A stretch of 38,367 bases of DNA, from the NCBI GenBank assembly GCA_964619725.1, contig CAZUFC010000086.1, forward strand, positions 1 to 38,367, written 5' to 3'. This stretch comes from an uncultured bacterium (GTDB taxonomy: Bacteria > CSSED10-310 > CAZUFC01). The number at the start of each line of letters is the position of its first letter. The stretch's first letter is position 1. This document shows, piece after piece, positions 18,149 through 38,089 of this stretch. A program made the translations under genes and the position numbers. The notes under the pieces are model-generated. The model saw only the letters and a list, made by a program, of their open reading frames with translations. It was not told the origin of the DNA and searched no databases.

Positions 18149-19759
18149 ATGAAGTCCAAAAAAATATCTGAAGTTTTGCTCTTTTCATTTATCGTCATTT
18201 TTGTCTTTTTCTGCGCTTCATCGAACGCAATAAAAGCCCAGGTCGTCTACTCGGAAAATTTTGATGATTGGAGCGCCGACGATCAGACCGGTCCCCCGGC
18301 TGTCTGCTGGGGAGGAAACTACTACATCGCAAGTTCATCCGGGACGCCGCTCTGCATGAATCTGCTTTCAATGAGAATCAACTCCACAACGGAAAAACCG
18401 GTCATCGGGATCGACCTGAGAGGATATACTAACGCAAGCATCAGCTACACTTATTACCAGTATGCTTATGCTTACTGTGCGGGCGAAATTAAGACACAGA
18501 CGTCCGGCGACCTGGACTGCGATCAGTCTTTCGGCTTCACCACGACGCAATACCATTTTACTGAACAGCAATGCGTGGACGTTACTATCCCCCTGACCGA
18601 CGATGCGATAAACTACTTCAGGTGGAGCAAAAGCGGCGGAGCTGAGATCGGTTTCTGGATCGATGAAGTCGTAGTGCAAGCCATAGGACAGGGACCGCAG
18701 TGCGTCGATTCCTTCGACGAAACCTTCGGGACCTCTTTCCAATCCGGTTCCGTCTGCAGCATATGGCCGGACATGTGGGAAACATGCGAGGGAAACGGAC
18801 CGTACATAACATCAGGAGGACCCTGCGGCGGTTCTTATGACTATGCCATGTATTTCGGAGACGGCTGGCCCTATTCCTCGGGAGAAACCGTATGCATCGA
18901 CCTTATCGGCGCTGCCGCCCCCTCTCTGAAATACTATTATTCCTGGGACGGCCTGAGCACTGTGTCGCCCATCATTGAAATTTCTCTCGATCACGGCGAT
19001 ACCTGGTCTGAACTGGTTTCGTCGCATGAAAATACGGGCGGTTCGTGCCTGGAACGCTGCATTAACCTGAACGCCTACATCGGATTCCAGATAAAACTCA
19101 GATTCACATCCCAATCCTCCACATCAGATTATCATGCCTATTTCGACGACATCCGGGTCCACCGAAATGATCCCTGTCCGCAAAATACCGCCACGCCAAC
19201 CTTTACTCCTGAACCGCTCCCCACACATACGCCGACCCGCTCGCCGACCGAGACAGCGACGCCGGAGCCGACAGAACCCCCCACAGCAACGCCGACGTTT
19301 TCGCCTACAAACATACCGCCCACCGATTCTCCCACGCCTTCCCCCACCAATTCGCCTACACAAACTCCCACCGATACGCCGATTCCGACTTTCACGACAG
19401 AACCCACCGGACCTCCCACCGGTACGCCGATTCCGACAGAAGCGCCCACCGTCGTCTCCACGGAAACTCCCACCTCCGTTCCCACATCAACCTCTACTAT
19501 TCCTCCGACTGATTCCCCTACGAGCACACCGACAGAATTTCCGACCGATCCCCCGACAGAAATCCCAACTGAAATACCATCTCCCTCGCCAACACAAACG
19601 ATGACGCCCATTATGACTGAAACCCCGGAAACGACGCCCACAACGACAGTCTCCCCAACCCCGCCGCCCATACCGGCGACAACGACAACAGGATGCCTGA
19701 TCCTGACGATAATGCTAGGAAGCCTGGCCATTTACGGCAACATGAAAATGAAAAAATGA
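18149..19759 (+). CDS. Secreted Cys-rich protein with two beta-sandwich-like domains, Pro/Thr stalk and C-terminal sorting tail
   Basis: Signal peptide; two 'ENF/ETF...W...(I/F)D(E/D)(V/I).V' modules; about 165 aa Pro/Thr-rich linker; 'IPATTTTG'-hydrophobic-'KMKK' tail; GGAGG SD. Confidence 0.85.
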   Translation: MKSKKISEVLLFSFIVIFVFFCASSNAIKAQVVYSENFDDWSADDQTGPPAVCWGGNYYIASSSGTPLCMNLLSMRINSTTEKPVIGIDLRGYTNASISYTYYQYAYAYCAGEIKTQTSGDLDCDQSFGFTTTQYHFTEQQCVDVTIPLTDDAINYFRWSKSGGAEIGFWIDEVVVQAIGQGPQCVDSFDETFGTSFQSGSVCSIWPDMWETCEGNGPYITSGGPCGGSYDYAMYFGDGWPYSSGETVCIDLIGAAAPSLKYYYSWDGLSTVSPIIEISLDHGDTWSELVSSHENTGGSCLERCINLNAYIGFQIKLRFTSQSSTSDYHAYFDDIRVHRNDPCPQNTATPTFTPEPLPTHTPTRSPTETATPEPTEPPTATPTFSPTNIPPTDSPTPSPTNSPTQTPTDTPIPTFTTEPTGPPTGTPIPTEAPTVVSTETPTSVPTSTSTIPPTDSPTSTPTEFPTDPPTEIPTEIPSPSPTQTMTPIMTETPETTPTTTVSPTPPPIPATTTTGCLILTIMLGSLAIYGNMKMKK

Positions 19760-28152: not shown

Positions 28153-29037
28153 ATGGATAAAGTCTCGATACTCAAAATAAGAACAACAATCCTCTCACTG
28201 TTCCTCGCCGTCATTCTGCTTTTAACCTCCTCACCGGTTTATCCCGGCGACTCGTCCGCCCCTGTCTCATATCCCTGGACAAAAGGACGGGAAATAAAGG
28301 ATCGAATAAAAACCCGGATAAATACTCCGCCTGGATACGAACGCGTTAAACCGGAACCGGGGAGTTTCGGGCGCTGGTTGCAGAGGTTGCCGTTAAAGGA
28401 AAAAAATGCTCCGGTTCTTTTCTTCGACGGCAGGAAGAAACCTGATCAGAATTTTCATTATGCCGTAATCGATATTGATTCAGGATCGCGCGATCTTCAG
28501 CAATGCGCGGATGCCGTGATCAGGTTAAGAGCCGAATACCTTTATTGCATGGGAAAATATGATCGTATCAGTTTCCATTTCACCAGCGGCGATGAAGCGC
28601 GTTTCCTGAAATGGGCGGGAGGTTACCGGCCATACGTCGACGGCAGTTCAGTCACCTGGAAAAAAACGGCTGAAATAAATCAAGACTATCCTGATTTCCG
28701 GAAGTACCTGGATGCGGTTTTCACATATGCCGGGTCCTGGTCGCTGAGTCAAGAACTGCTTCAACGAAAGAATCCCCTTGAAATGAAAATCGGCGATGTC
28801 CTTATCCAGGGCGGCTTTCCTGGCCATGCCGTCATCATCGTAGATAAAGCCGTCAACCCGCAGAACAATGATATCCTCTTTCTGGCAGCGCAGAGCTACA
28901 TGCCGGCCCAGGATATCCATATACTGAAGAACCCGGGGGATAAATCCCTTTCTCCGTGGTATAAACTGCCTACCCGGGGCGATATCGTCACCCCGGAATG
29001 GACGTTTCAAGTTTCAGACCTTCGTTATTTTCCATGA
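28153..29037 (+). CDS. DUF4846-like secreted protein
   Basis: Signal peptide; 'P.GYER', 'LPLK', 'DLQQCADAVIRLRAEYL', 'GGFPGHAVII.D', 'AQSYMPAQDIHIL.NP'. Confidence 0.75.
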   Translation: MDKVSILKIRTTILSLFLAVILLLTSSPVYPGDSSAPVSYPWTKGREIKDRIKTRINTPPGYERVKPEPGSFGRWLQRLPLKEKNAPVLFFDGRKKPDQNFHYAVIDIDSGSRDLQQCADAVIRLRAEYLYCMGKYDRISFHFTSGDEARFLKWAGGYRPYVDGSSVTWKKTAEINQDYPDFRKYLDAVFTYAGSWSLSQELLQRKNPLEMKIGDVLIQGGFPGHAVIIVDKAVNPQNNDILFLAAQSYMPAQDIHILKNPGDKSLSPWYKLPTRGDIVTPEWTFQVSDLRYFP

Positions 29038-29129
29038 GTCCACGCCATTCATCTTAAAGCTCAGCCCACGAATACACAAAAGTTCTGTTCCTCTTGAAGG
29101 TCCTGTCTTCTGCATAGACCAGCGCCGCA

Positions 29130-29224
29130 GGATTGAGCAAATCCGTAGGAACCCCACGACGCGGGATTGAATCTGCGGGGATATGGACGCTCGTAATAGG
29201 TTTTGAATGAGAAAAGCCGGCTAA
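29130..29224 (-). repeat. Family B repeat copy
   Basis: Reverse complement of 29174-29214 matches 38323-38363 at 39/41 nt; TGAGCAAATCCG (29134-29145) matches TGGGCAAATCCG (22729-22740). Confidence 0.7.
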
Positions 29225-29256
29225 AGCTTCATGACGCTTCATATGACGTAACGAAC

Positions 29257-29293
29257 AGGACCGCCGGAAACTGTGAACGTTTCCGGCGGTCCT
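29257..29293. terminator. 15-bp perfect hairpin between convergent genes
   Basis: AGGACCGCCGGAAAC-tgtgaac-GTTTCCGGCGGTCCT; U-tracts are weak. Confidence 0.55.
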
Positions 29294-29353
29294 TATGAAC
29301 AAGGGTTCAAGTCTGCCATTCTCAGGTCTTCAATTGCCCCAGTCCTACAGACG

Positions 29354-30010
29354 CTACATCGTCATTCTGCCTTCCCCAATCCCGCTTCGACATTTGAATT
29401 TCATACCGGACAGCAGAATTATAAGAAGGGCCGCGCCTATAAAATCAAGACACGGAACTTCCTCGACGCATGAATAGGTGAAGGCGCCGTTCTGAACGGA
29501 AAAGCCATCTACGTCGTCGACAGGATTGATGATGCTCAGTTCGCATGGGTCGTCTTCCGAGCATGCATCGCATGTAACGGTTAAGTTGACGTAAAGAAGG
29601 ACAGCAGAGCTCTGAGGGGGAATGGGATTTTCAGGTGAGAACCCACCCATTCTTACGCATCCCTGTTCCAATTCGTATCCTTCCAGGAAGGGCCATCCCG
29701 GTATCAGCTCGCCCCTTTCCACCGAAACGAATTCCAACATATCCGGGCAAAACAGGAAATCAAATCCGAATTGTTCGATTGAGGTTGAGTTATTCTGGAT
29801 GTAAACCGGAATGCAAGCCGTTTCGCCGCTGCATCCGGAAACATCGCCGATGATTATCTGTCCGTCCTTCTCGGCTGCATGAGAAGCGACGGCGAATGAA
29901 GCCGCAAGCAAAACCGGAATCAACAGGATAGCGCTGAAGCTTGCCCACCATTTCAGCTCCCGGCGCACTCTGTTTCGATTCAACCGTCCGGAATTTCTTG
30001 AATTTTTCAC
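29354..30010 (-). CDS. Single-cohesin protein with signal peptide and C-terminal sorting tail (mini anchor scaffoldin)
   Basis: GGAGG SD before GTG at 30010; AxA-type signal; cohesin-like 'G.SGET..IPV.I.N....FGFD....PD.LEFVSVE.G.L'; tail 'VPCLDFIG'-hydrophobic-'KFKCR'. Confidence 0.78.
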   Translation of the reverse strand: MKNSRNSGRLNRNRVRRELKWWASFSAILLIPVLLAASFAVASHAAEKDGQIIIGDVSGCSGETACIPVYIQNNSTSIEQFGFDFLFCPDMLEFVSVERGELIPGWPFLEGYELEQGCVRMGGFSPENPIPPQSSAVLLYVNLTVTCDACSEDDPCELSIINPVDDVDGFSVQNGAFTYSCVEEVPCLDFIGAALLIILLSGMKFKCRSGIGEGRMTM

Positions 30011-30044
30011 TGGTCTTTCCTCCAAATCACACATTCTGACCTGT

Positions 30045-33000
30045 TCACTTTATTCCAGACAAGTCGTTTCCTTTTTTGAAAACGACATCGAATCCTGCAA
30101 TGTCGTCCACCAGACCGGTTAAATCGAACTTGATCCTGTCAAAGTCCCACGAAATTTCACCGGCTTTGCTTTTAAAATCGATGACGGCAAGTATGCCGCT
30201 GTCGTCCTGGAGTTCATAGATTTCGGGCTGGAAAGCGCCGATTTTGATGGCGTCCGGGTATTGACCGACGCCGGTAAAGGGCCAGTCATCGACGAAATCG
30301 CCGAACCGGACGTTGCAGAACTCCATTTCAGAATCAGGATAATGCAGCTTGAACCCTAATGAAGAGACAGGTTGATCTGATTTATCGATCGAAACGATCA
30401 TTTTAAGCCGGTCTGCAGTCGAACCGGGCAGCAGTTGTGCGGACAGGATGCCATGCGGCGCTCCGCGTTGTGAAATTCGATTTCTGCCTGCATCCTGACT
30501 GAGTTTTTTATAAGGCCTGAATCCGTTGTCAGTTGGCGGTTCAGGCTGGTCTACGCAGTTGCAGCCCATATCCAGGTAATGTTTGAAGATGCAGTTGGCG
30601 TCAGCCGGCGTTACGGTTCCGTCGCCGTTGCAGTCCGCAGAACACGACTCCTGACGGCTCGGATCAGGGATGATGGTCAGGTAAATCTGAAAGGCCATGT
30701 TGGCATCACGAGGAGTGATCATTCCGTCGTTCGACACATCGCCGTCATTGATGCAATCGATGAAGGTGAATGTCCCGCATTGAGTCATCCAGTCGGCTAT
30801 GTCGTCAACCATATTCTGAGAACACATGGTGCACTGATCGCCGTCCAGGCAATCCTGACAGTCGACGACGAAGTTCAGAACCGCTATGCTGCCGTAACTC
30901 CCGGTCGGAATCTCCTGGGTATCGAAACCTGCAACACGTACATAACTGTCCTGGGGCACGTCATTGCAGTCCAGCTCGTACCAGTTCTCGGTCAAATCCC
31001 CCGATTCGCAGGAATCTAACTGCAGCATGGAGGGACAATAAGTCATGTCTAATCCGAATTCGTTCAGAGGCGTCATAGGATTATGAATGTTCAGGGTTAT
31101 CTGCACGGTTTCCCCGTTTTCTCCCGTCGCTCCCTCTATCCAGAGAAAATCTTCTGTAGGAGTAAACGTTATTGCGGGCGTCGGAGTAGGATAGAAGGTC
31201 GGAGTTTCCGTTATCTGGTAAGTCGGAACGAATGTGGGCGTGGGTTGGGTCATCCCGCCAAGCGGCTTGCTGACGAAAAAATTATCCGCATATACGGGAT
31301 GAGCATTGAATCCGCCCAGGACCGGCGGCGATTCATTATAAGCCGGGTCTATCGTGTTTTCGGTCGTCCACAACTGCTCGCCGTTAAGGTAATACTCCAC
31401 GTGCAAATCCGGCCTGATGACTACCCTCGCATTATGCCAGGCGCTGTCTGTAAATGAACCGTCAATGGCGTGATGTTCCTGATGAGCCGGGTCTTCCGAG
31501 TCGATATACATGTCGACCGTCCGGCTCCCTGCGCCTCCGTTCAAACACATGAAAACAGCATAATCCAGGTTGTCTCCGTTTACGATCTCCTCCATCGGCA
31601 ATCCGAACCACAGATCATTATAATGTGAAGAACAGTCGCTCAGGAAAAAATCGCAGCTCATCACCAATCCCCCGCTGTAGTCCGCCAGGAACGAGGTATG
31701 GTAAATTTCCGTGTTCATTCCGTCGCCGGCTCCGCCGGGAATATAATTATGACGAGGATTCCCGTGCGTTTCGTCTATTCCCGGCGCAAGACCGGGATTA
31801 TACAGGGTATGGATGCTCCAGTCCCCAGAAGGAAACCCGTCAATCAACTCAAAATCTTCAAACATGTCCATGTAAAAGAACTCGTCCATACAGAAATTAT
31901 CGGCATAAACCGGATAGGTGTTGAATCCGCCCAGTACCGGCCGCGCATTATTATACCCCGGATCGATTTTCGCCACGGTCGTGTAAAGTAACTCATCGTT
32001 CAAATAAAACTCCACGTAATGATCGGGACGTATCCGTATCTCCGCCCGGTTCCATACGCCTGCATCAAATCCCCCGGGAATTTCAAAATAGTCCTGGTGC
32101 CCGGCGACCTCCGAATCGATGAAACCAATGACGTTGCGATTGCCCGCATCGGCATTCAATGTCATAAAAACAGCGTAATCTATGTTATTCCCATCCTGGA
32201 TGCGCTCGCGAGGCAACCCCATCCACAAATCGTTGTAATGAGTCGACGTATCGCTGAGGAAAAAATCGCAAGTCATGCGGAACCCGCGGCTGTAATCCGC
32301 TGTGTAGTATTTAGCGTATATTTCCGTGTTCTGCCCGTCGCCGGCGCCTCCGGGAACGTAACAATGATAAGGATTCCCGTGCGTCGTATCTATGGCAGGC
32401 TCTATGTAGGGATTGTACAGCGTGTGCACGGCCCAGTCATCGGAGGGAAATTCTTCTACGTCTTCGAAGTCCTCGCAATAGGGTATCCGGTAAAACTTTT
32501 CGTTGACGTAATAATTGTCGGCATATACGGGACTGGCATTGAAACCGCCTAAAACAGGTATGCCGTGATTATACGACATGTCGACCGTCTGAGTGGTCGT
32601 CCACAAAAGCGTCCCGTCAACGTAAAATTCCACCAGACGGTCCGGCCGTATCCTTATCTCCGCCATATGATACTGACCCGGCGTGAATCCGTTTTCTATG
32701 TAAATTAATTCTTCGTTGTCCTGATAACCGTTTATACGGCAATAGACATAATTGGCGCCCGTACTCCCGTTAAACCAGAGCTCAACGGAATACGCCAGAT
32801 TCTCCCCGTCAACGACCTCGCCCTGGGCCAGACCGAACCACAGATCATTATAATGGGCTGACGTATCGGTAATTTTAAAATCACACGTCATACGGCAACC
32901 GCGACTGTAGTCCACAGTGAATTCATTATGGTATATTTCCGTATTCTGTCCGTCGCCGGCTCCTCCAGGAACGTAACAATGACCAGGATTCCCGTTCACA

Positions 33001-33182
33001 GGATCAATGCCGGGCAAAAGGTGCGGACTATAAAGCGTATGCACGTTCCAATCATCAGAAGGAAAATCCTCTATCATCTCAAAATCCTCAAATAAAACAA
33101 ATTCGGCTCGTACCGTTACGACCGATGCCGTAAACATCCCAATCAAAAACATCATCAACATTCCCGTTATCTTAGCTTTCAT
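30045..33182 (-). CDS. Large secreted protein: 3 tandem ConA/LamG-like repeats, Pro/Thr linker, cohesin, dockerin, second cohesin-like domain
   Basis: AAGGAG SD before the ATG at 33182; three ~205 aa repeats; paired Ca-binding loops 'GDVSNDGMITPRDA' and 'ADCNGDGTVTPADA'; two cohesin-like beta domains. Confidence 0.82.
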   Translation of the reverse strand: MKAKITGMLMMFLIGMFTASVVTVRAEFVLFEDFEMIEDFPSDDWNVHTLYSPHLLPGIDPVNGNPGHCYVPGGAGDGQNTEIYHNEFTVDYSRGCRMTCDFKITDTSAHYNDLWFGLAQGEVVDGENLAYSVELWFNGSTGANYVYCRINGYQDNEELIYIENGFTPGQYHMAEIRIRPDRLVEFYVDGTLLWTTTQTVDMSYNHGIPVLGGFNASPVYADNYYVNEKFYRIPYCEDFEDVEEFPSDDWAVHTLYNPYIEPAIDTTHGNPYHCYVPGGAGDGQNTEIYAKYYTADYSRGFRMTCDFFLSDTSTHYNDLWMGLPRERIQDGNNIDYAVFMTLNADAGNRNVIGFIDSEVAGHQDYFEIPGGFDAGVWNRAEIRIRPDHYVEFYLNDELLYTTVAKIDPGYNNARPVLGGFNTYPVYADNFCMDEFFYMDMFEDFELIDGFPSGDWSIHTLYNPGLAPGIDETHGNPRHNYIPGGAGDGMNTEIYHTSFLADYSGGLVMSCDFFLSDCSSHYNDLWFGLPMEEIVNGDNLDYAVFMCLNGGAGSRTVDMYIDSEDPAHQEHHAIDGSFTDSAWHNARVVIRPDLHVEYYLNGEQLWTTENTIDPAYNESPPVLGGFNAHPVYADNFFVSKPLGGMTQPTPTFVPTYQITETPTFYPTPTPAITFTPTEDFLWIEGATGENGETVQITLNIHNPMTPLNEFGLDMTYCPSMLQLDSCESGDLTENWYELDCNDVPQDSYVRVAGFDTQEIPTGSYGSIAVLNFVVDCQDCLDGDQCTMCSQNMVDDIADWMTQCGTFTFIDCINDGDVSNDGMITPRDANMAFQIYLTIIPDPSRQESCSADCNGDGTVTPADANCIFKHYLDMGCNCVDQPEPPTDNGFRPYKKLSQDAGRNRISQRGAPHGILSAQLLPGSTADRLKMIVSIDKSDQPVSSLGFKLHYPDSEMEFCNVRFGDFVDDWPFTGVGQYPDAIKIGAFQPEIYELQDDSGILAVIDFKSKAGEISWDFDRIKFDLTGLVDDIAGFDVVFKKGNDLSGIK

Positions 33183-33323
33183 TATTTCTCCTTTCATTGC
33201 ATCCAAAAAAATATTTTTCAATCATCAATGTCTGATAAAACTCGACGAAGAGGTCCTCCGCCGGTTAAGAAACCTTGCCTTTCATCACCTCCCTTCTCCA
33301 CCGGGTATGACGCACCAACTAAG

Positions 33324-33340
33324 GGCAAACTCCATGCCGG
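33324..33340 (-). promoter_or_regulatory. Candidate sigma54 (-24/-12) promoter
   Basis: Minus strand CCGGCATGGAGTTTGCC: GG-N10-GC with GGCA and TTGC, about 140 nt upstream of the start at 33182. Confidence 0.55.
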
Positions 33341-33477
33341 AGAAAAGAGAGGTAATGAAAAGTTAAAATAACCTATTGAATACAAATAGTTTCACACATT
33401 CGGAACAACGCTCATGAGGATATGAACTTTTATAACTTTTCGGTCATTTATGCCCAAAAGGAATGACCATAAGGTTT

Positions 33478-33631
33478 GTGGCGCTGATCGGACATCAGTG
33501 TTTCGAGGTTACAACTTTTCCGAATATCCCATTATTTTGTTTCGATTTGGATTTCGATTTCGATCCCGACCCGATTACTGAAACAAACTGTCCAACGTTT
33601 TGAAAGAAGTTCACCCCGGTTTGATCAGTCC
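33478..33631 (+). mobile_element. Family A element, copy 8 (insertion subtype, left tip missing)
   Basis: GGCGCTGATCGGACATCAGTGTTTCGAGGTTACAAC...about 6 hexamers...TTTGATCAGTCC; followed by an inverted left-arm fragment at 33635-33661. Confidence 0.7.
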
Positions 33632-33754
33632 TTAAATTGTAATCCCGAAACGTGCATTTTTATACGCATCATGCGACTCTCTTCTTCTCTATCCGTTATA
33701 TCCGTTGTTGGCGCAAACTTTTCAATTGTTTTCGACAACCCCGGATTCTGATCC

Positions 33755-36592
33755 TCATCCGTCATTTTTAATCCTGTTCAGCTTTGCCGTCAACCGGTCT
33801 TCCATACTTCTCAAATCGATATACCAGCTTCCGTATCGTTCTATTTCTTCCAGGGATTTCCTGAACTGTTCTTCAGCTTTTCGACGTTCATTTTGCGCAG
33901 CATGCACCTCCGCCCTGGCTTCATGAAGCATGGTCCTTAATTTCGGGTCTAAAATGTTGTAAGTCAGCCATTTATCCAGTCTTTCGGCATGGTGAGCGTA
34001 TTTTTCGCTGTTTCCCGGGCTGCAATCCGCCATGGCTTCAAGCGAAACCGTCAACGGATTGTCCGCGTGCAGAAGCAGCCTGTTTTCCTTTAAGGCTGAA
34101 ATAACCGTTTTCATATCGCCTGACAGAAAAGAGTAATAAGCAAGCACTTCCAATGAATTGTGAATGCTCATCTGTCCATCATTTTCTTCCTCGGTTAATT
34201 TCCGGGCTTCAATCAAAGCTTCATCCTCCATGCCGTTCAGATGCATGGCGCTTATTCTCTGGCCTTCAAGCCAGTAATGACTTTTAATAGGCTTTACTCC
34301 AAAACTTTCGTAAAATTCAAGTTCTTCCTCAAACCGTCCCTGTTCGTGATACCATTCCGCCATGGCCAGTCTGCATTCAATATTTGCGGGGTCTTTCTCT
34401 GCGCCTGCTATGAAATACTCTTTGGAAGCCTCCCAGTCGTTTTTACGTAAATACCATTGGCCCAGCAGGTAATACAGATATACTTTCAGCCCGCGATTAC
34501 CCAGCGGAATGTCTTCGTATTTCTTTATTTCATTTATCGCCTCCATCAGCGCTCCGTCATGATAGTAAAGCTGGGCTTTCCTCAGGGACTTCCAGAATTC
34601 ATTTTGCCTTTCGAGCCGGTCGGGAATATCGGGTTGACCCAGTATATGTCCCGTGTTGAAATCAATTTTCAACCTGTTGTGGTGGGAATCGTTTATTTCA
34701 AGAATCTCCTTTTGCCCATCGATCGAGCATTGGGTTATTGCATCGCCATGGCCGCCCGGAAGAAGAACATACCAGTCAAACGGCAAATTTAAAGTCGTTC
34801 CGAGTCCATTTTCAAATGGAGGCATTTCGCCGGGATGACTGTAACTGTTTATTTTAAAAACGGCGGGACGCCTGTTCATACGCCAGTTGTTTCCATAGAA
34901 AACCAGAGAATAAAGACCTTCAGAATCTCCAGGAACTTTGATCACGCCTTGTATGCCGCCGGCATTCCGGTATTTTTTACTGGAACTGATAATATCACGG
35001 TTCTTGAAATAATCACGAAACTCTGCAACATAGGGGAATCCTTGCCTGGAATTAATGATAATAAGAAATCGGTTGAATATGGAGTTATTCTCCAGCCATA
35101 AAATTCTCCTTACTATGTAATCAAAACCGACATCCGGATAAAAATCCCTCGGTTCGACTGAATGGCTGTCGATTATTTCAGGACGCCCGAAAAAAGATTT
35201 CGGAGGTTCCACCAGGTAAACCATGCCGTTTTCGAAGGGCAATTCCGCTTCTGTATCAGCATCCCAGGGAGTATTAACTCCTCCTCCTACCAGCCAGCAA
35301 CGCTTTCTTTCCGGAAGAAAATCGCCGTAAGGGGGGTCCGGTATCACCAAATTGGTGTTTTTATCCTTCAGTTCAAAACTCCAGTCTCGTTTAGGAAATG
35401 GTTCGTCAACATTCAATGTAGTTTCCGATTCAAGGCTGTATGAGGGTAAGCGGTCCCTGGAAAAGGCGACATGATTCGATATGAAAAGAACCGACAGTAT
35501 TAAAACGAGAAAAGTCAGAGGCGCCAGAATATGCAGTCTTTTGAAGTAAATATGTAACCACAGAGACCTCAGTTTATTCCCAATTTTTGTGAAAAAGGAA
35601 ACTCCTTTTTTCCTCGACTTGTCTACCGAACTGCCGTCAAAAAGGCGCTGATTTGTCGTCAAGCGCGTTTCCTTATGCAAATTACGTCTCGATAGTCGAA
35701 AAATCGCAGCGCTTCTTTTCATACTGCGAAACCTGGTCGAAGGCGAACGTTTCAGCATCTTTTTCGTCATCTTTTCAATGGGATAAGGAATGCCGCTATT
35801 CGCTTCAATCAGCTTCGGATTCGGCACGGTCAGATGAGGATTAACGCCTGCCAGCATAAAAAGAGTAATCAGACCCATTTGATACACATCCGATCGCTTA
35901 TTGACGGCTTTACCGTCGAAATATTGCTCAGGCGACCACCATCCCGGCGTTCCTATTCTTTGACCGAGTTCCGTGAGTTCTTTTTTCTGACGTTGAATAC
36001 GCTTGCCGGGCAAGCAGACGCCGAGGTCCAGTATTACTGCGTTAACGTTGTCGGTTATGATTATGTTGGAGGGTTTAATATCTCTGTGCACGATTTTTTT
36101 CTTATGCAGATAGGCCAGTCCTGCAGCGATTTCCGACAGAAGCCGCAGCCTGGTTTCCATCGCCGCATCGTTGTTTTTTCTCAGCCAAATGTCAAGCTGA
36201 TCGCCCTGGATGTAGTTCATCACCAGAAACGGCATACCTTCATAAAACCCGGTGTCCCGGCAGGGAACAAGATTCGGATGGTCCAGATCGAGTAAAAATT
36301 CGCCTTCCCGTTGAAGTCGTTCTGAGAGTTCTTTTCGCTCCTCCTCATAAGCTTGCGGGCGAACGATCTTCACCGCCAACGTCTGTTCATCGCCTTCCTC
36401 GCCGAAAAAATCAGCCGCATAGACATCGCATTGACCGCCTCGCGCTATATGTTCCCGGATATAATAGGAATGATTCATCCCTCTTATGATCGTTCCCGGC
36501 TCCAAAAAAGCATAAGTCGCTGTCCTTAATCCGTTTTTCCGGACGACTGTGCCGCCGTCTTCCCTGGTCATATCGTTTTTTTCGTCATTCAT
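33755..36592 (-). CDS. Hanks-type Ser/Thr protein kinase with TM helix and C-terminal TPR-like region
   Basis: 'IARGGQCDVY', 'LAVKI', 'HRDIKPSN', 'DLG', 'GTPGWWSPEQ', 'SDVYQMG'; TM 'ILAPLTFLVLILSVLFIS'; helical TPR-like C-terminus. Confidence 0.9.
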   Translation of the reverse strand: MNDEKNDMTREDGGTVVRKNGLRTATYAFLEPGTIIRGMNHSYYIREHIARGGQCDVYAADFFGEEGDEQTLAVKIVRPQAYEEERKELSERLQREGEFLLDLDHPNLVPCRDTGFYEGMPFLVMNYIQGDQLDIWLRKNNDAAMETRLRLLSEIAAGLAYLHKKKIVHRDIKPSNIIITDNVNAVILDLGVCLPGKRIQRQKKELTELGQRIGTPGWWSPEQYFDGKAVNKRSDVYQMGLITLFMLAGVNPHLTVPNPKLIEANSGIPYPIEKMTKKMLKRSPSTRFRSMKRSAAIFRLSRRNLHKETRLTTNQRLFDGSSVDKSRKKGVSFFTKIGNKLRSLWLHIYFKRLHILAPLTFLVLILSVLFISNHVAFSRDRLPSYSLESETTLNVDEPFPKRDWSFELKDKNTNLVIPDPPYGDFLPERKRCWLVGGGVNTPWDADTEAELPFENGMVYLVEPPKSFFGRPEIIDSHSVEPRDFYPDVGFDYIVRRILWLENNSIFNRFLIIINSRQGFPYVAEFRDYFKNRDIISSSKKYRNAGGIQGVIKVPGDSEGLYSLVFYGNNWRMNRRPAVFKINSYSHPGEMPPFENGLGTTLNLPFDWYVLLPGGHGDAITQCSIDGQKEILEINDSHHNRLKIDFNTGHILGQPDIPDRLERQNEFWKSLRKAQLYYHDGALMEAINEIKKYEDIPLGNRGLKVYLYYLLGQWYLRKNDWEASKEYFIAGAEKDPANIECRLAMAEWYHEQGRFEEELEFYESFGVKPIKSHYWLEGQRISAMHLNGMEDEALIEARKLTEEENDGQMSIHNSLEVLAYYSFLSGDMKTVISALKENRLLLHADNPLTVSLEAMADCSPGNSEKYAHHAERLDKWLTYNILDPKLRTMLHEARAEVHAAQNERRKAEEQFRKSLEEIERYGSWYIDLRSMEDRLTAKLNRIKNDG

Positions 36593-36934: not shown

Positions 36935-38089
36935 ATGAAGAGACGAAATTTTACAGTTTTTACAGTCTTTTTAAGCCTTTTGACGAATTTTGCCGCCGTT
37001 CACGCCTTTTTGACGCCGACGCCTGTTCCCGAACACCAGGTATTGATGATCAATGTTCACGGAACTTCTTACGACGCGGACGGTTACAGCGTTTATGAGA
37101 CGCTGGTGAATGCCGGCGCTGATGCGGATTGGGTGAATCTTTCCTCTGACGGACAAGCTGCGCAGCTCATAAACGAAAACACATACGACCAGATATGGAT
37201 ATTCGACCTTTCGCATTCCACCGACAATTATCCCACGGATTGGCAGGCCGTTGCGGACTGGTTCAATGATGATCCGAGTCGCGCCGTTATCTGCGACGCC
37301 CGAATAATCTCATCTTACTGGAACGGCCGTCATACTTCCGAAGGGCAGAACTTGACGGAGAATTATTATGGAAATATGAAGCTTCACGGCGGGGGATTAA
37401 TGCTGGGAACGGATCATTCCTCTTATGTCTCGGGAATCAACACGGTCAATTCATTGATAGGACTCAACATGTTTTTCGGCAATTTCAACCTGACCTTCAT
37501 TCCCGTCGATACGGAGAATCCCCTGATGTATCATCCCAATGACATGGGGACTGAATTATGGGACGATTCCACACCGGGACAGACGCCTTACGGACTCCAG
37601 CCGAACGGCAGGATACTCTATACCGTCGCCTGGCACTCCGGGAATCCCGACACGCCGGGAATTTCCAGCACCATCGAAGGAGTCATCGGGTACCACGTTA
37701 ACATTACGAATCCCCCGGACGAAAGCTCATTTTATGATGAATTAATAACTTTTGAAGCCGAAGGAACCGGCGGCAATCCTCCTTACTCATTCGAATGGTC
37801 GTCGAATATCGACGGCGATCTCGGAACCGGTCCCGGCATACAGGTGCATACCGACGACCTGACCTACGGAATTCATACCATTACGGTCTTTTCCACCGAT
37901 CTTTATTCCCGCACTGATGACGATTCAATCAACATCACCGTCTCAGCCCCCACAGCAACGCCGACAATGAGCCCCACTCCCACCGAACCGCAACCTGTTC
38001 CTGCCGTGAACACCGCCGGCGCAGCCGTTCTGATGCTCCTGGTCGGCTCGCTTATCGCTACAAAATCATTCGGTCGCTCTGAAAAATAA
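36935..38089 (+). CDS. Secreted protein with alpha/beta N-terminal domain, Ig/PKD-like domain, short Pro/Thr linker and C-terminal sorting tail
   Basis: GGAGG SD; signal peptide; 'I..P......ITF.A..TGG.PPYSF.WSS..DG.LGTG...L..G.HTITV...D'; tail 'VPAVNTAG'-hydrophobic-'KSFGRSEK'. Confidence 0.82.
   Translation: MKRRNFTVFTVFLSLLTNFAAVHAFLTPTPVPEHQVLMINVHGTSYDADGYSVYETLVNAGADADWVNLSSDGQAAQLINENTYDQIWIFDLSHSTDNYPTDWQAVADWFNDDPSRAVICDARIISSYWNGRHTSEGQNLTENYYGNMKLHGGGLMLGTDHSSYVSGINTVNSLIGLNMFFGNFNLTFIPVDTENPLMYHPNDMGTELWDDSTPGQTPYGLQPNGRILYTVAWHSGNPDTPGISSTIEGVIGYHVNITNPPDESSFYDELITFEAEGTGGNPPYSFEWSSNIDGDLGTGPGIQVHTDDLTYGIHTITVFSTDLYSRTDDDSINITVSAPTATPTMSPTPTEPQPVPAVNTAGAAVLMLLVGSLIATKSFGRSEK

Follow-up and report, generated by a model that had tools for sequence, protein, structure and literature searches.

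What might cohesin and dockerin modules, best known from cellulosomes, be used for on a cell with an outer membrane? The question is raised by two adjacent genes on contig CAZUFC010000086.1 (assembly GCA_964619725.1) from an uncultured bacterium, of which we analyzed positions 1 to 38,367; we call this whole stretch of 38,367 nucleotides the window. Both genes lie on the minus strand. The large gene (30045..33182) encodes a lectin-bearing scaffoldin or adaptor of 1045 amino acids (aa), counted from an ATG at 33182, and the small gene (29354..30034) encodes a one-cohesin anchor of 226 aa, or of 218 aa if translation starts 8 codons later. Cohesin-dockerin pairs are the glue of cellulosomes in Gram-positive bacteria, in which SLH modules or sortase hold the scaffolds to the wall; to our knowledge, many non-cellulosomal relatives of these modules have no established role.

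We consider it fairly probable that this operon-like pair builds a non-cellulolytic cohesin-dockerin assembly on the diderm envelope, with the scaffold docked on the anchor. The small protein would be exported and would present one Cys-rich cohesin ahead of a divergent sorting tail, which a single exosortase-family enzyme (closest to XrtH/ArtB) is presumed to handle. The large protein would be a secreted scaffold with three lectin-fold modules that are probably glycan-binding. Its calcium-type dockerin would plug into the cohesin of the small anchor, and its two cohesins would then recruit other dockerin-bearing proteins.

Cohesin and dockerin domains of the two proteins

Pfam Cohesin (PF00963) matches residues 695-786 of the large protein at 26.6 bits and residues 59-157 of the small protein at 24.2 bits, against a cut-off of 24.1, and Dockerin_1 (PF00404) matches residues 827-878 of the large protein at 26.2 bits (cut-off 22.9); in a six-frame search of the genome, the dockerin scores 31.8 bits. 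Profiles built from the genome's own paralogs recover the same domains at E values of 1e-36 to 1e-51, with 6.4e-51 for the first cohesin of the large protein (cohesin 1; 30744..31154), 5.6e-50 for the anchor cohesin (29459..29866), and 1.2e-36 for the dockerin (30543..30761). The C-terminal domain of the large protein (30072..30449) receives no Pfam call. It matches the small protein's cohesin with phmmer (domain E 2e-4), and iterated searches seeded by either this domain or cohesin 1 converge on the same 34 open reading frames (ORFs) and 56 domains.

An AlphaFold2 (AF2) model of residues 680-1058 of the large protein shows two beta-sandwiches, a three-helix dockerin, and a disordered linker, with a predicted local distance difference test score (pLDDT) of 73.8 and a predicted template modeling score (pTM) of 0.62. 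The C-terminal domain forms a beta-sandwich at a pLDDT of about 86-93, which together with the phmmer match and the converging searches bears out the second cohesin-like domain proposed in a preliminary description of this DNA. The linker between the dockerin and this last cohesin (30450..30542) falls below a pLDDT of 50 at model residues 215-241 and is variable and gapped in the alignment. Cohesins are nine-stranded beta-sandwiches of the jelly-roll type. The best PDB matches of the model in Foldseek are cohesins, with the dyad 3l8q at E 3e-12, and type I cohesin folds, including 5nrm, 3ul4, 1ohz, and 2xdh, match at target template modeling (TM) scores of 0.58-0.72. The small protein's cohesin reaches a pLDDT of 94 inside the complex model described below. 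A type I dockerin has two calcium loops of the form D-x-N/D-x-D-G-x-x-x-x-x-D, each followed by a helix. Both loops are canonical in the translation (loop 1, DVSNDGMITPRD; loop 2, DCNGDGTVTPAD; DxNxDGxxxxxD type), and helices occupy model residues 158-168, 177-183, and 193-203 at a pLDDT of 86-94. The dockerin further has conserved Cys residues and carries "DAN" in place of "DAQ" in both of its repeats.

An unusual Cys pattern had been remarked upon in cohesin 1 and the anchor cohesin, which are 31.9% identical. The pattern is real but not specific to this pair: C99 and C102 are at least 90% conserved across 41 aligned cohesins and are a hallmark of the whole family. The C-terminal cohesin has a single Cys. 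In a maximum-likelihood tree of 54 cohesins, those that follow a dockerin form a clade (CohX) that includes the C-terminal cohesin of the window (support 98/94), and the small anchors of the window and of a paralogous locus on contig C122 form a separate clade (support 100/98). Cohesin 1 sits among ordinary anchor cohesins, and in a second subsystem (contigs C20, C64, and C97) the anchor and post-dockerin cohesins make up neighboring groups.

Might these domains instead be beta-sandwich and EF-hand-like modules of a generic kind, without cohesin or dockerin function? Such a view would accommodate the marginal Pfam scores and the C-terminal domain that Pfam leaves uncalled. We regard it as hardly credible, given that the best fold matches are cohesins, that both calcium loops are canonical, that the two families co-occur and are expanded together in nine related genomes, and that the docking model, a confident one, brings the canonical faces together. 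The layouts first read from the translations, namely signal peptide, repeats, Pro/Thr linker, cohesin, dockerin, and second cohesin-like domain in the large protein and signal peptide, one cohesin, and hydrophobic/basic tail in the small one, hold up, as does the statement that neither protein contains a glycoside hydrolase domain recognized by Pfam. NCBIfam names neither protein.

Predicted pairing of the dockerin with the anchor cohesin

We modeled the dockerin together with one of the three cohesins, that of the small anchor, and two calcium ions. The complex scored 0.80, and the best of three controls scored 0.03. Three runs agreed in 100% of contacts, with a partner pLDDT of at least 93. 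In the calibration of this score, which holds only roughly here (custom alignments were used and a ligand was included), 58 of 80 solved complexes reach the mark versus 2 of 110 mismatched pairs. The model supports the earlier suggestion that the small protein is the anchor that receives the large protein's dockerin. Because solved cohesin-dockerin complexes exist and close cousins also pass, we read it as evidence of likeness and of a plausible interface, not as proof of binding, and the pass may reflect family likeness only. We infer that binding would be calcium-dependent and specific.

The predicted contacts run from dockerin helices 1 and 3 to cohesin residues F33/G34, G75/F76, and D117/D118. 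Few residues of the family are better conserved than these, and each of the window's three cohesins retains the core interface set (F33/L33, G34, F76, D117, and D118). Other interface positions are private to this locus and its paralog. N21, N56 (the "DAN" of both repeats), and K60 occur only in the window and C122 dockerins, and Q56 is found in 13 of 13 other aligned dockerins. Q32, G63, and Y/F64 occur together only in the two small anchors; the window's copy has Q32, E62, G63, and Y64. Among the other cohesins outside the CohX clade (n = 46), 35 have C63 and 37 have N64, and cohesin 1 shares this majority type (C63, N64). The CohX domain lacks residue 66 and differs at other peripheral residues. 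In the complex model, dockerin residue 56 touches cohesin residues 32, 76, 77, and 78.

These lineage-specific changes on both partners suggest a private dockerin-anchor pair, and the expected partners of cohesin 1 would be dockerins of the majority "DAQ" type. Because the private changes fall on the dockerin and on the small anchor, whereas cohesin 1 is of the majority type, we favor a hierarchical topology, in which the scaffold docks on the anchor, over a self-polymerising one.

Recurrence of the module within the genome

The host genome is a 9.17-Mb draft in 344 contigs, 90.9% complete and 6.5% contaminated. A genome-wide count, one of the checks envisaged in the preliminary description, gave 13 dockerin and 34 cohesin matches with Pfam, and 25 dockerin ORFs and 56 Cys-rich cohesins in 34 ORFs with searches based on the window's own domains. 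At 11 loci, a large tail-less dockerin-cohesin protein is followed on the same strand, 10-156 nt on (stop to first ATG), by a smaller anchor that has a signal peptide and one to five cohesins and ends, usually after a long Pro/Thr stalk, in a hydrophobic/basic tail; on contig C8, two large dockerin-cohesin genes stand in tandem before the anchor. The window pair is the smallest version of this module. It had been described as a two-gene assembly, but it does not stand alone: this genome has 11 loci of the kind, and the system extends through the phylum. At its paralog on C122, the large protein is 82% identical over the C-terminal part and the small protein is 69% identical, basic N-terminal extension included, and only these two large proteins have an extra cohesin before the dockerin.

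Among the other large proteins, right-handed beta-helix/NosD repeats, often with Big_7, are the cargo in 8 of the 10 that were scanned, and the remaining ones comprise one with PLD and TIG domains and one with a cohesin only. The cargo includes proteins of 1000-12092 aa that are rich in beta-helix repeats; Pfam recognized no glycoside hydrolase family in samples of 10 other large dockerin proteins of this genome and 10 of its relatives. Because the cargo consists of giant beta-helix proteins, we infer that the assembly arrives at the outer surface.

Cargo, dockerin, cohesin, and tail are fused in one chain in four proteins (on C7, C19, C34, and C182), and one of these, C34:1691-37966 (+), is a single open frame of 12,092 aa that ends in dockerin, cohesin, and tail. 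More generally, a cohesin comes directly after the dockerin in the same chain in 22 of the 25 dockerin ORFs (one broken and one cut by a contig end), with exceptions on C101, C116, and C131, and the linkers between the two domains span about 20-50 residues. This dockerin-then-cohesin rule speaks for one of two other arrangements, a self-polymer or a cis clasp.

In a self-polymer, as the preliminary description proposed, copies of the large protein would be joined by the dockerin of one and cohesin 1, the C-terminal cohesin, or both in others, and the small anchor would be the nucleus of a branched lattice. A single chain does hold a dockerin and two cohesins, the three cohesins all retain the core interface residues, and the recurrent domain order, fused to a tail in the four proteins above, looks as if neighboring domains were partners. 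Self-binding cohesin-dockerin proteins, reported from Archaeoglobus fulgidus, offer a precedent. Against this, cohesin 1 has a majority interface and the dockerin is of the minority "DAN" type that only the small anchor matches, which is a mild argument, and the CohX domain has lost residue 66 and departs from the others at its periphery. We judge a self-polymer to be unlikely.

In a cis clasp, the dockerin would fold back on the cohesin that follows it to form one structural or auto-capped unit, and the anchor would serve other dockerins or act after the cap is displaced. The dockerin-linker-cohesin order and the length of the linkers fit this arrangement; the window's own linker is disordered and long enough to reach back, and the pTM of 0.62 for the three-domain chain hints at fixed packing. 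Most dockerins in related genomes are terminal, however, and have no cis partner; docking on the cohesin of the small anchor is modeled with confidence; and 10-156 nt downstream of each such protein lies an anchor gene of its own. We hold the cis clasp to be quite unlikely and retain docking on the anchor as the preferred reading.

Several further cohesin- and dockerin-bearing ORFs were seen in this genome. The 578-aa dockerin-cohesin ORFs of two short contigs, C276 and C277, are identical and probably reflect a repeat or a duplication in the assembly; the dockerin count is therefore perhaps one too high. At C12:40015-40775 (-), a dockerin-cohesin gene is split into three short frames with a TAG inside the cohesin match and is likely a pseudogene or an assembly error. 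Elsewhere on the same contig, C12:72037-74577 (+) is an 847-aa ORF with a secretin domain and a C-terminal Pfam cohesin (25.6 bits) that is not of the Cys-rich family, which could be a docking point for secreted dockerin proteins. Pfam cohesins that the family profile leaves out occur on C106 (218- and 1103-aa ORFs, both with a tail) and C59 (219 aa), and further Pfam dockerins occur in 3039- and 3012-aa ORFs on C9 and C45; these domains may form a second cohesin-dockerin set.

Relatives across the phylum

The host appears to belong to the candidate phylum CSSED10-310, and for comparison, we used 13 other genomes of the phylum, none closer than same phylum, together with 27 genomes from outside it. 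A profile of 41 cohesins finds the Cys-rich family in 9 of the 13, with 6-30 strong matches each, and in 1 of the 27 outside genomes, where the match is weak (E 1.4e-6). The dockerin family is present in 11 of 14 phylum genomes, the host's included, and reaches 22-70 copies in six genomes of one family. Against named genome records, a narrower cohesin alignment returned 10 loci, all in metagenome-assembled genomes, and the pair of small proteins as a query returned no related loci. Word-based protein searches gave eight matches for the dockerin-CohX stretch of the large protein, only itself and the C122 paralog for the small protein, and only itself for another one-cohesin anchor of this genome; such searches have limits in length and in sensitivity, and uniqueness does not follow from these results. 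The only paper devoted to the phylum that we found announces five of its genomes; it predicts Gram-negative cells and, in the accessible part of its text, does not mention cohesin or dockerin modules (PMC8248873).

At the sampled loci of relatives, most dockerins are terminal, with no cohesin after them. These loci display a complete cellulosome-like repertoire, with terminal dockerins on cargo, 245-aa cohesin-dockerin adaptors, and a three-cohesin scaffold that ends in a dockerin; a 2005-aa dockerin-cohesin protein is followed by this scaffold. In 10 sampled dockerin proteins, the cargo comprises FGE-sulfatase, peptidases M14 and C25, LTD, and CBM56. The multi-cohesin scaffolds of two relatives (loci L020 and L021) end in the same kind of tail as the anchors of this genome. 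In one family (L018, L027, L030, and L040), multi-cohesin scaffolds end not in a tail but in a conserved domain with the pattern ...LEFYS.L...GDYGY.TFGY.D, which suggests a second way of anchoring. A further relative (G010, contig C13; L036 and L037) has a cluster of five paralogs in which a dockerin at the N-terminus precedes an FGE-sulfatase (SUMF1-like) domain; the Pfam scan covered three of them.

Locus L028 encodes a full-length ortholog of the large protein, with three lectin repeats and the cohesin-dockerin-cohesin order, at 40-54% identity; its dockerin is of the "DAQ" type, and no small anchor lies downstream of it.

Sorting tails and an exosortase homolog

The tails of the anchors share the pattern P-[IV]-P-[AST]-x4-G, followed by about 14 hydrophobic residues and then Lys/Arg. 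Genome-wide, a strict form of the pattern finds at least 123 ORFs and a looser form finds 133, some of them false, and all 10 other anchors end in clear copies. The window's tail (29357..29461; EVPCLDFIGAALLIILLSGMKFKCR), aligned by eye, is a divergent copy that fits the logo at positions 2-3, 9, 13, and 16-18 (V2, P3, G9, L13, L16, L17, and S18) and has the basic cluster, which makes its membership in the genome-wide signal plausible. The term "sorting tail" in the preliminary description finds support in that this segment aligns with an exosortase-type signal used throughout a genome with one exosortase gene, although the window's own copy is weak. Two other ORFs in the window, 18149-19759 (+) of 536 aa and 36935-38089 (+) of 384 aa, end in clear tails (E 5e-5 and 1.5e-5) and have no Pfam match.

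The sole exosortase/archaeosortase-family ORF of the genome (C134:12958-13542, 195 aa) scores 35.5 bits with PF09721 and 65.6 bits with TIGR04178 (exo_archaeo; cut-off 23). It reaches the cut-off of no named subfamily, the nearest being ArtB (78.1 versus 150) and XrtH (76.5 versus 86). The ORF adjoins a tail-bearing gene and contains IYECAGIF, INWIRMV, and FHEW, which we take to be the stretches of the catalytic Cys, Arg, and His. In three of four loci compared (C134:12342-13542 (-); L033 and L035), the gene after that for the exosortase encodes a membrane protein of 205-302 aa, which may be an accessory factor. Exosortase-family proteins are found in 14 of 14 genomes of the phylum, and searches of the host genome (90.9% complete) returned no match to sortase or to the canonical PEP-CTERM model. 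For the tails, the VPDSG-CTERM model TIGR03778 gave no useful match, and NCBIfam offered no relevant match to a tail typical of the anchors. The IPTL-CTERM model TIGR04174, presumably the XrtH-type signal, accepts two tails, and most fall below its cut-off. The exosortase homolog presumably recognizes the tail signal and would cleave the tail and attach the protein. We found one precedent in a diderm: Methylomirabilis lanthanidiphila has an S-layer protein with a predicted IPTL-CTERM signal, and, as far as the available text goes, an antiserum against the protein served to determine where the S-layer lies (PMC8671808).

Evidence against the proposed docking on an exosortase-processed anchor

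A number of points weigh against the reading of a scaffold docked on a surface anchor, beginning with the anchor's tail. With the tail profile, it scores 10 bits at E 1.1, a poor match; it has no first Pro, and it has Cys at position 4, where the others have Ala, Ser, or Thr. Given this Cys and the weak score, the tail may be unprocessed. The small protein would then be a bitopic inner-membrane protein with an uncleaved tail and the complex would be periplasmic, a view that also suits the unusually long basic N-region. Yet the tail agrees with the logo at the seven positions listed above and in its basic cluster, all 10 other anchors bear clear copies, the cargo is of the large, beta-helix-rich kind typical of extracellular proteins, and the M. 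lanthanidiphila protein offers a case in which an antiserum to an IPTL-CTERM protein served to localize an S-layer, in the text available (PMC8671808). A bitopic protein therefore strikes us as improbable.

The remaining points concern the domains and their partners. The Pfam scores for the cohesins and the dockerin are only just above the cut-offs. Complex prediction cannot tell a true partner from close cousins, and solved cohesin-dockerin complexes exist; the correlated interface changes represent one evolutionary event, shared by the window and C122 paralogs. Self- or cis-binding is possible given the core interface residues common to all three cohesins, and the dockerins directly followed by a cohesin in 22 of 25 cases fit cis or head-to-tail binding at least as well. 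The L028 ortholog has no small anchor downstream, and the lectin repeat and scaffold occur in only 2 of 14 phylum genomes. Finally, we know of no established route by which exosortase substrates cross the outer membrane.

Gene starts, signal peptides, and lectin-fold repeats

The longest ORF for the large gene (30045-33221 (-), 1058 aa) has an alternative TTG start at 33221. The ATG at 33182 is the likely start because GGAG precedes it and because a 1045-aa database entry, identical to the large protein over the queried stretch, agrees with it. The signal peptide (MKAKITGMLMMFLIGMFTASVVTVRA; 33102..33182) was read from the translation, with no predictor. In the small protein, a long basic N-region and a hydrophobic signal segment (29873..30034) are conserved in the C122 paralog and would end at a putative cleavage site, ...AVASHA/AEKDG. 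The gap of 34 nt between the genes given in the preliminary description is correct if the small gene starts 8 codons later, as in a 218-aa database entry, and shrinks to 10 nt if it starts at the ATG at 30034; the first 8 residues of the 226-aa form are partly kept in the paralog. Export by the twin-arginine translocation (Tat) pathway was considered for the small protein and rejected, as the twin Arg is lost in the paralog (RR versus RP).

Three repeats follow the signal peptide of the large protein, at 32472..33101, 31827..32471, and 31218..31826, and lead into a Pro/Thr-rich linker (31155..31217) read from the translation. They are mutually 52-54% identical in the alignment, the second and third being 54% and 52% identical to the first. 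The AF2 model of repeat 1 is a ConA-like jelly roll (pLDDT 92.4; pTM 0.90), and its Foldseek matches are the calreticulin lectin domain (TM 0.66-0.68), the legume-lectin domain 7elv (0.63/0.64), and PL7 lyases. On this model, the original label "lectin-like" is right for the fold, and the repeats would bind sugar. PL7 lyases and GH16 glucanases have this fold too, which leaves room for an enzymatic role.

Curated lectin and LamG families in Pfam do not match the repeats, with the nearest scores at 20.9 bits versus a cut-off of 26.8 for 3keto-disac_hyd and 15.3 versus 22.9 for Laminin_G_2, and PF13385 appears only in the precomputed domain list of the C122 paralog. Searches of PDB sequences gave chance-level matches only. 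The family of the repeat is rare, 94 of 1.84 billion representative proteins falling at E ≤0.001, and the protein-atlas matches of the repeat to DUF6645, SO2946-like_C, and a sialidase CBM are leads only.

Host and neighboring genes

The preliminary description had proposed a diderm host that produces lipopolysaccharide (LPS). Pfam identifies two GT9 heptosyltransferases, a KdsB-type cytidylyltransferase, and Wzy_C (O-antigen ligase) in the window, and a genome-wide domain search finds Omp85 and secretins. These LPS core genes and outer-membrane components confirm the assignment of the host as a diderm. Directly upstream of the pair, 33755-36592 (-) encodes a Ser/Thr protein kinase of 945 aa that has a membrane segment and, at its C-terminus, TPR repeats. 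Among public sequencing runs, none of RNA was listed as containing this DNA; four DNA runs, all of one study, were listed, and one of them may be its source. A scan for promoters and terminators at the locus gave chance-level numbers (7 versus 6.5 and 6 versus 5.4), and Rfam had no match within 28900-33900.

Comparison with known systems

Taken as a whole, the genome offers an internally consistent system in a diderm lineage that has no cultured member, comprising Cys-rich cohesins and dockerins, scaffolds, adaptors, cargo, and exosortase-type anchors. If our reading is right, exosortase substrates gain a concrete function in carrying a modular surface assembly, and the locus illustrates how an outer-membrane-bearing cell can carry cohesin-dockerin complexes. 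It would also supply new, possibly disulfide-stabilized and mutually orthogonal cohesin-dockerin pairs for protein engineering, with the "DAN" dockerin and the Q32/G63/Y64 cohesin as a predicted private pair. A bolder picture, which we put forward as an unlikely but consequential one, is that exosortase-processed cohesin stalks, possibly attached to lipid or glycan, carry giant beta-helix and lectin cargo through calcium dockerins as a plug-in envelope, and that the cargo, chaining head-to-tail by its conserved dockerin-cohesin end, makes the coat a self-extending lattice. This would be a new diderm surface architecture and the first natural link between exosortase and cohesin-dockerin systems.

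Among anchoring mechanisms for scaffoldins, a 2025 review names, in its accessible text, SLH modules and sortase, and it describes ScaE and sortase of Ruminococcus flavefaciens (PMC12484212). In open full-text literature (subscription journals and supplements fall outside this scope), we found no report of exosortase-type anchoring of cohesin scaffolds. Pfam reports no SLH module in the two window proteins; no genome-wide SLH search was made. Like Clostridium thermocellum CipA on SdbA or OlpB, the pair would combine a sugar-binding scaffold, with cohesins and one dockerin, and a cell-bound cohesin anchor, a scheme that the available part of the review presents in general form (PMC12484212). 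The large protein differs from CipA in that lectin-fold repeats take the place of CBM3, only two cohesins are present, one of them after the dockerin, and the cohesins and dockerin are Cys-rich; the anchor differs from SdbA and OlpB in having an exosortase-type tail in place of SLH modules.

Non-cellulosomal cohesin and dockerin modules are reported from all domains of life, and scaffoldin-like proteins of ANME archaea carry up to five cohesins, according to the accessible portions of two studies (PMC9012536, PMC5244752). With such archaeal proteins, to the extent that these portions describe them, the present system shares a setting outside cellulose degradation, multi-cohesin architectures, and varied cargo (PMC9012536, PMC5244752), and 2xdh, a cohesin from A. 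fulgidus, turned up as one of the fold matches. Unlike the archaeal cases, it belongs to a bacterial diderm, has a distinct Cys-rich subfamily that our searches found in one candidate phylum with a weak match outside, pairs cargo genes with anchor genes, and uses an exosortase-type tail.

The tails in turn resemble those of exosortase systems (PEP-CTERM/EpsH, IPTL-CTERM/XrtH, VPXXXP-CTERM/ArtB, and PGF-CTERM/ArtA) in combining a motif, a membrane helix, and a basic cluster and in occurring on many secreted proteins. They depart from these named systems in that the enzyme falls below every subfamily cut-off and most tails fall below the IPTL-CTERM cut-off.

The genes for ScaB, CttA, and ScaE of R. 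flavefaciens lie close together. In contrast to that system, in which ScaE has an LPXTG signal, the present one is found in a diderm, uses an exosortase-type tail in a genome with no sortase match, is repeated at 11 loci, and has no glycoside hydrolase in the sampled cargo. The pair is not a cellulosome, given the sampled cargo and the absence of a sortase match, but it would work like the scaffold-anchor part of one: as with ScaB or CttA on ScaE, a small one-cohesin protein with a C-terminal sorting signal would receive the dockerin of a larger scaffold or adhesin.

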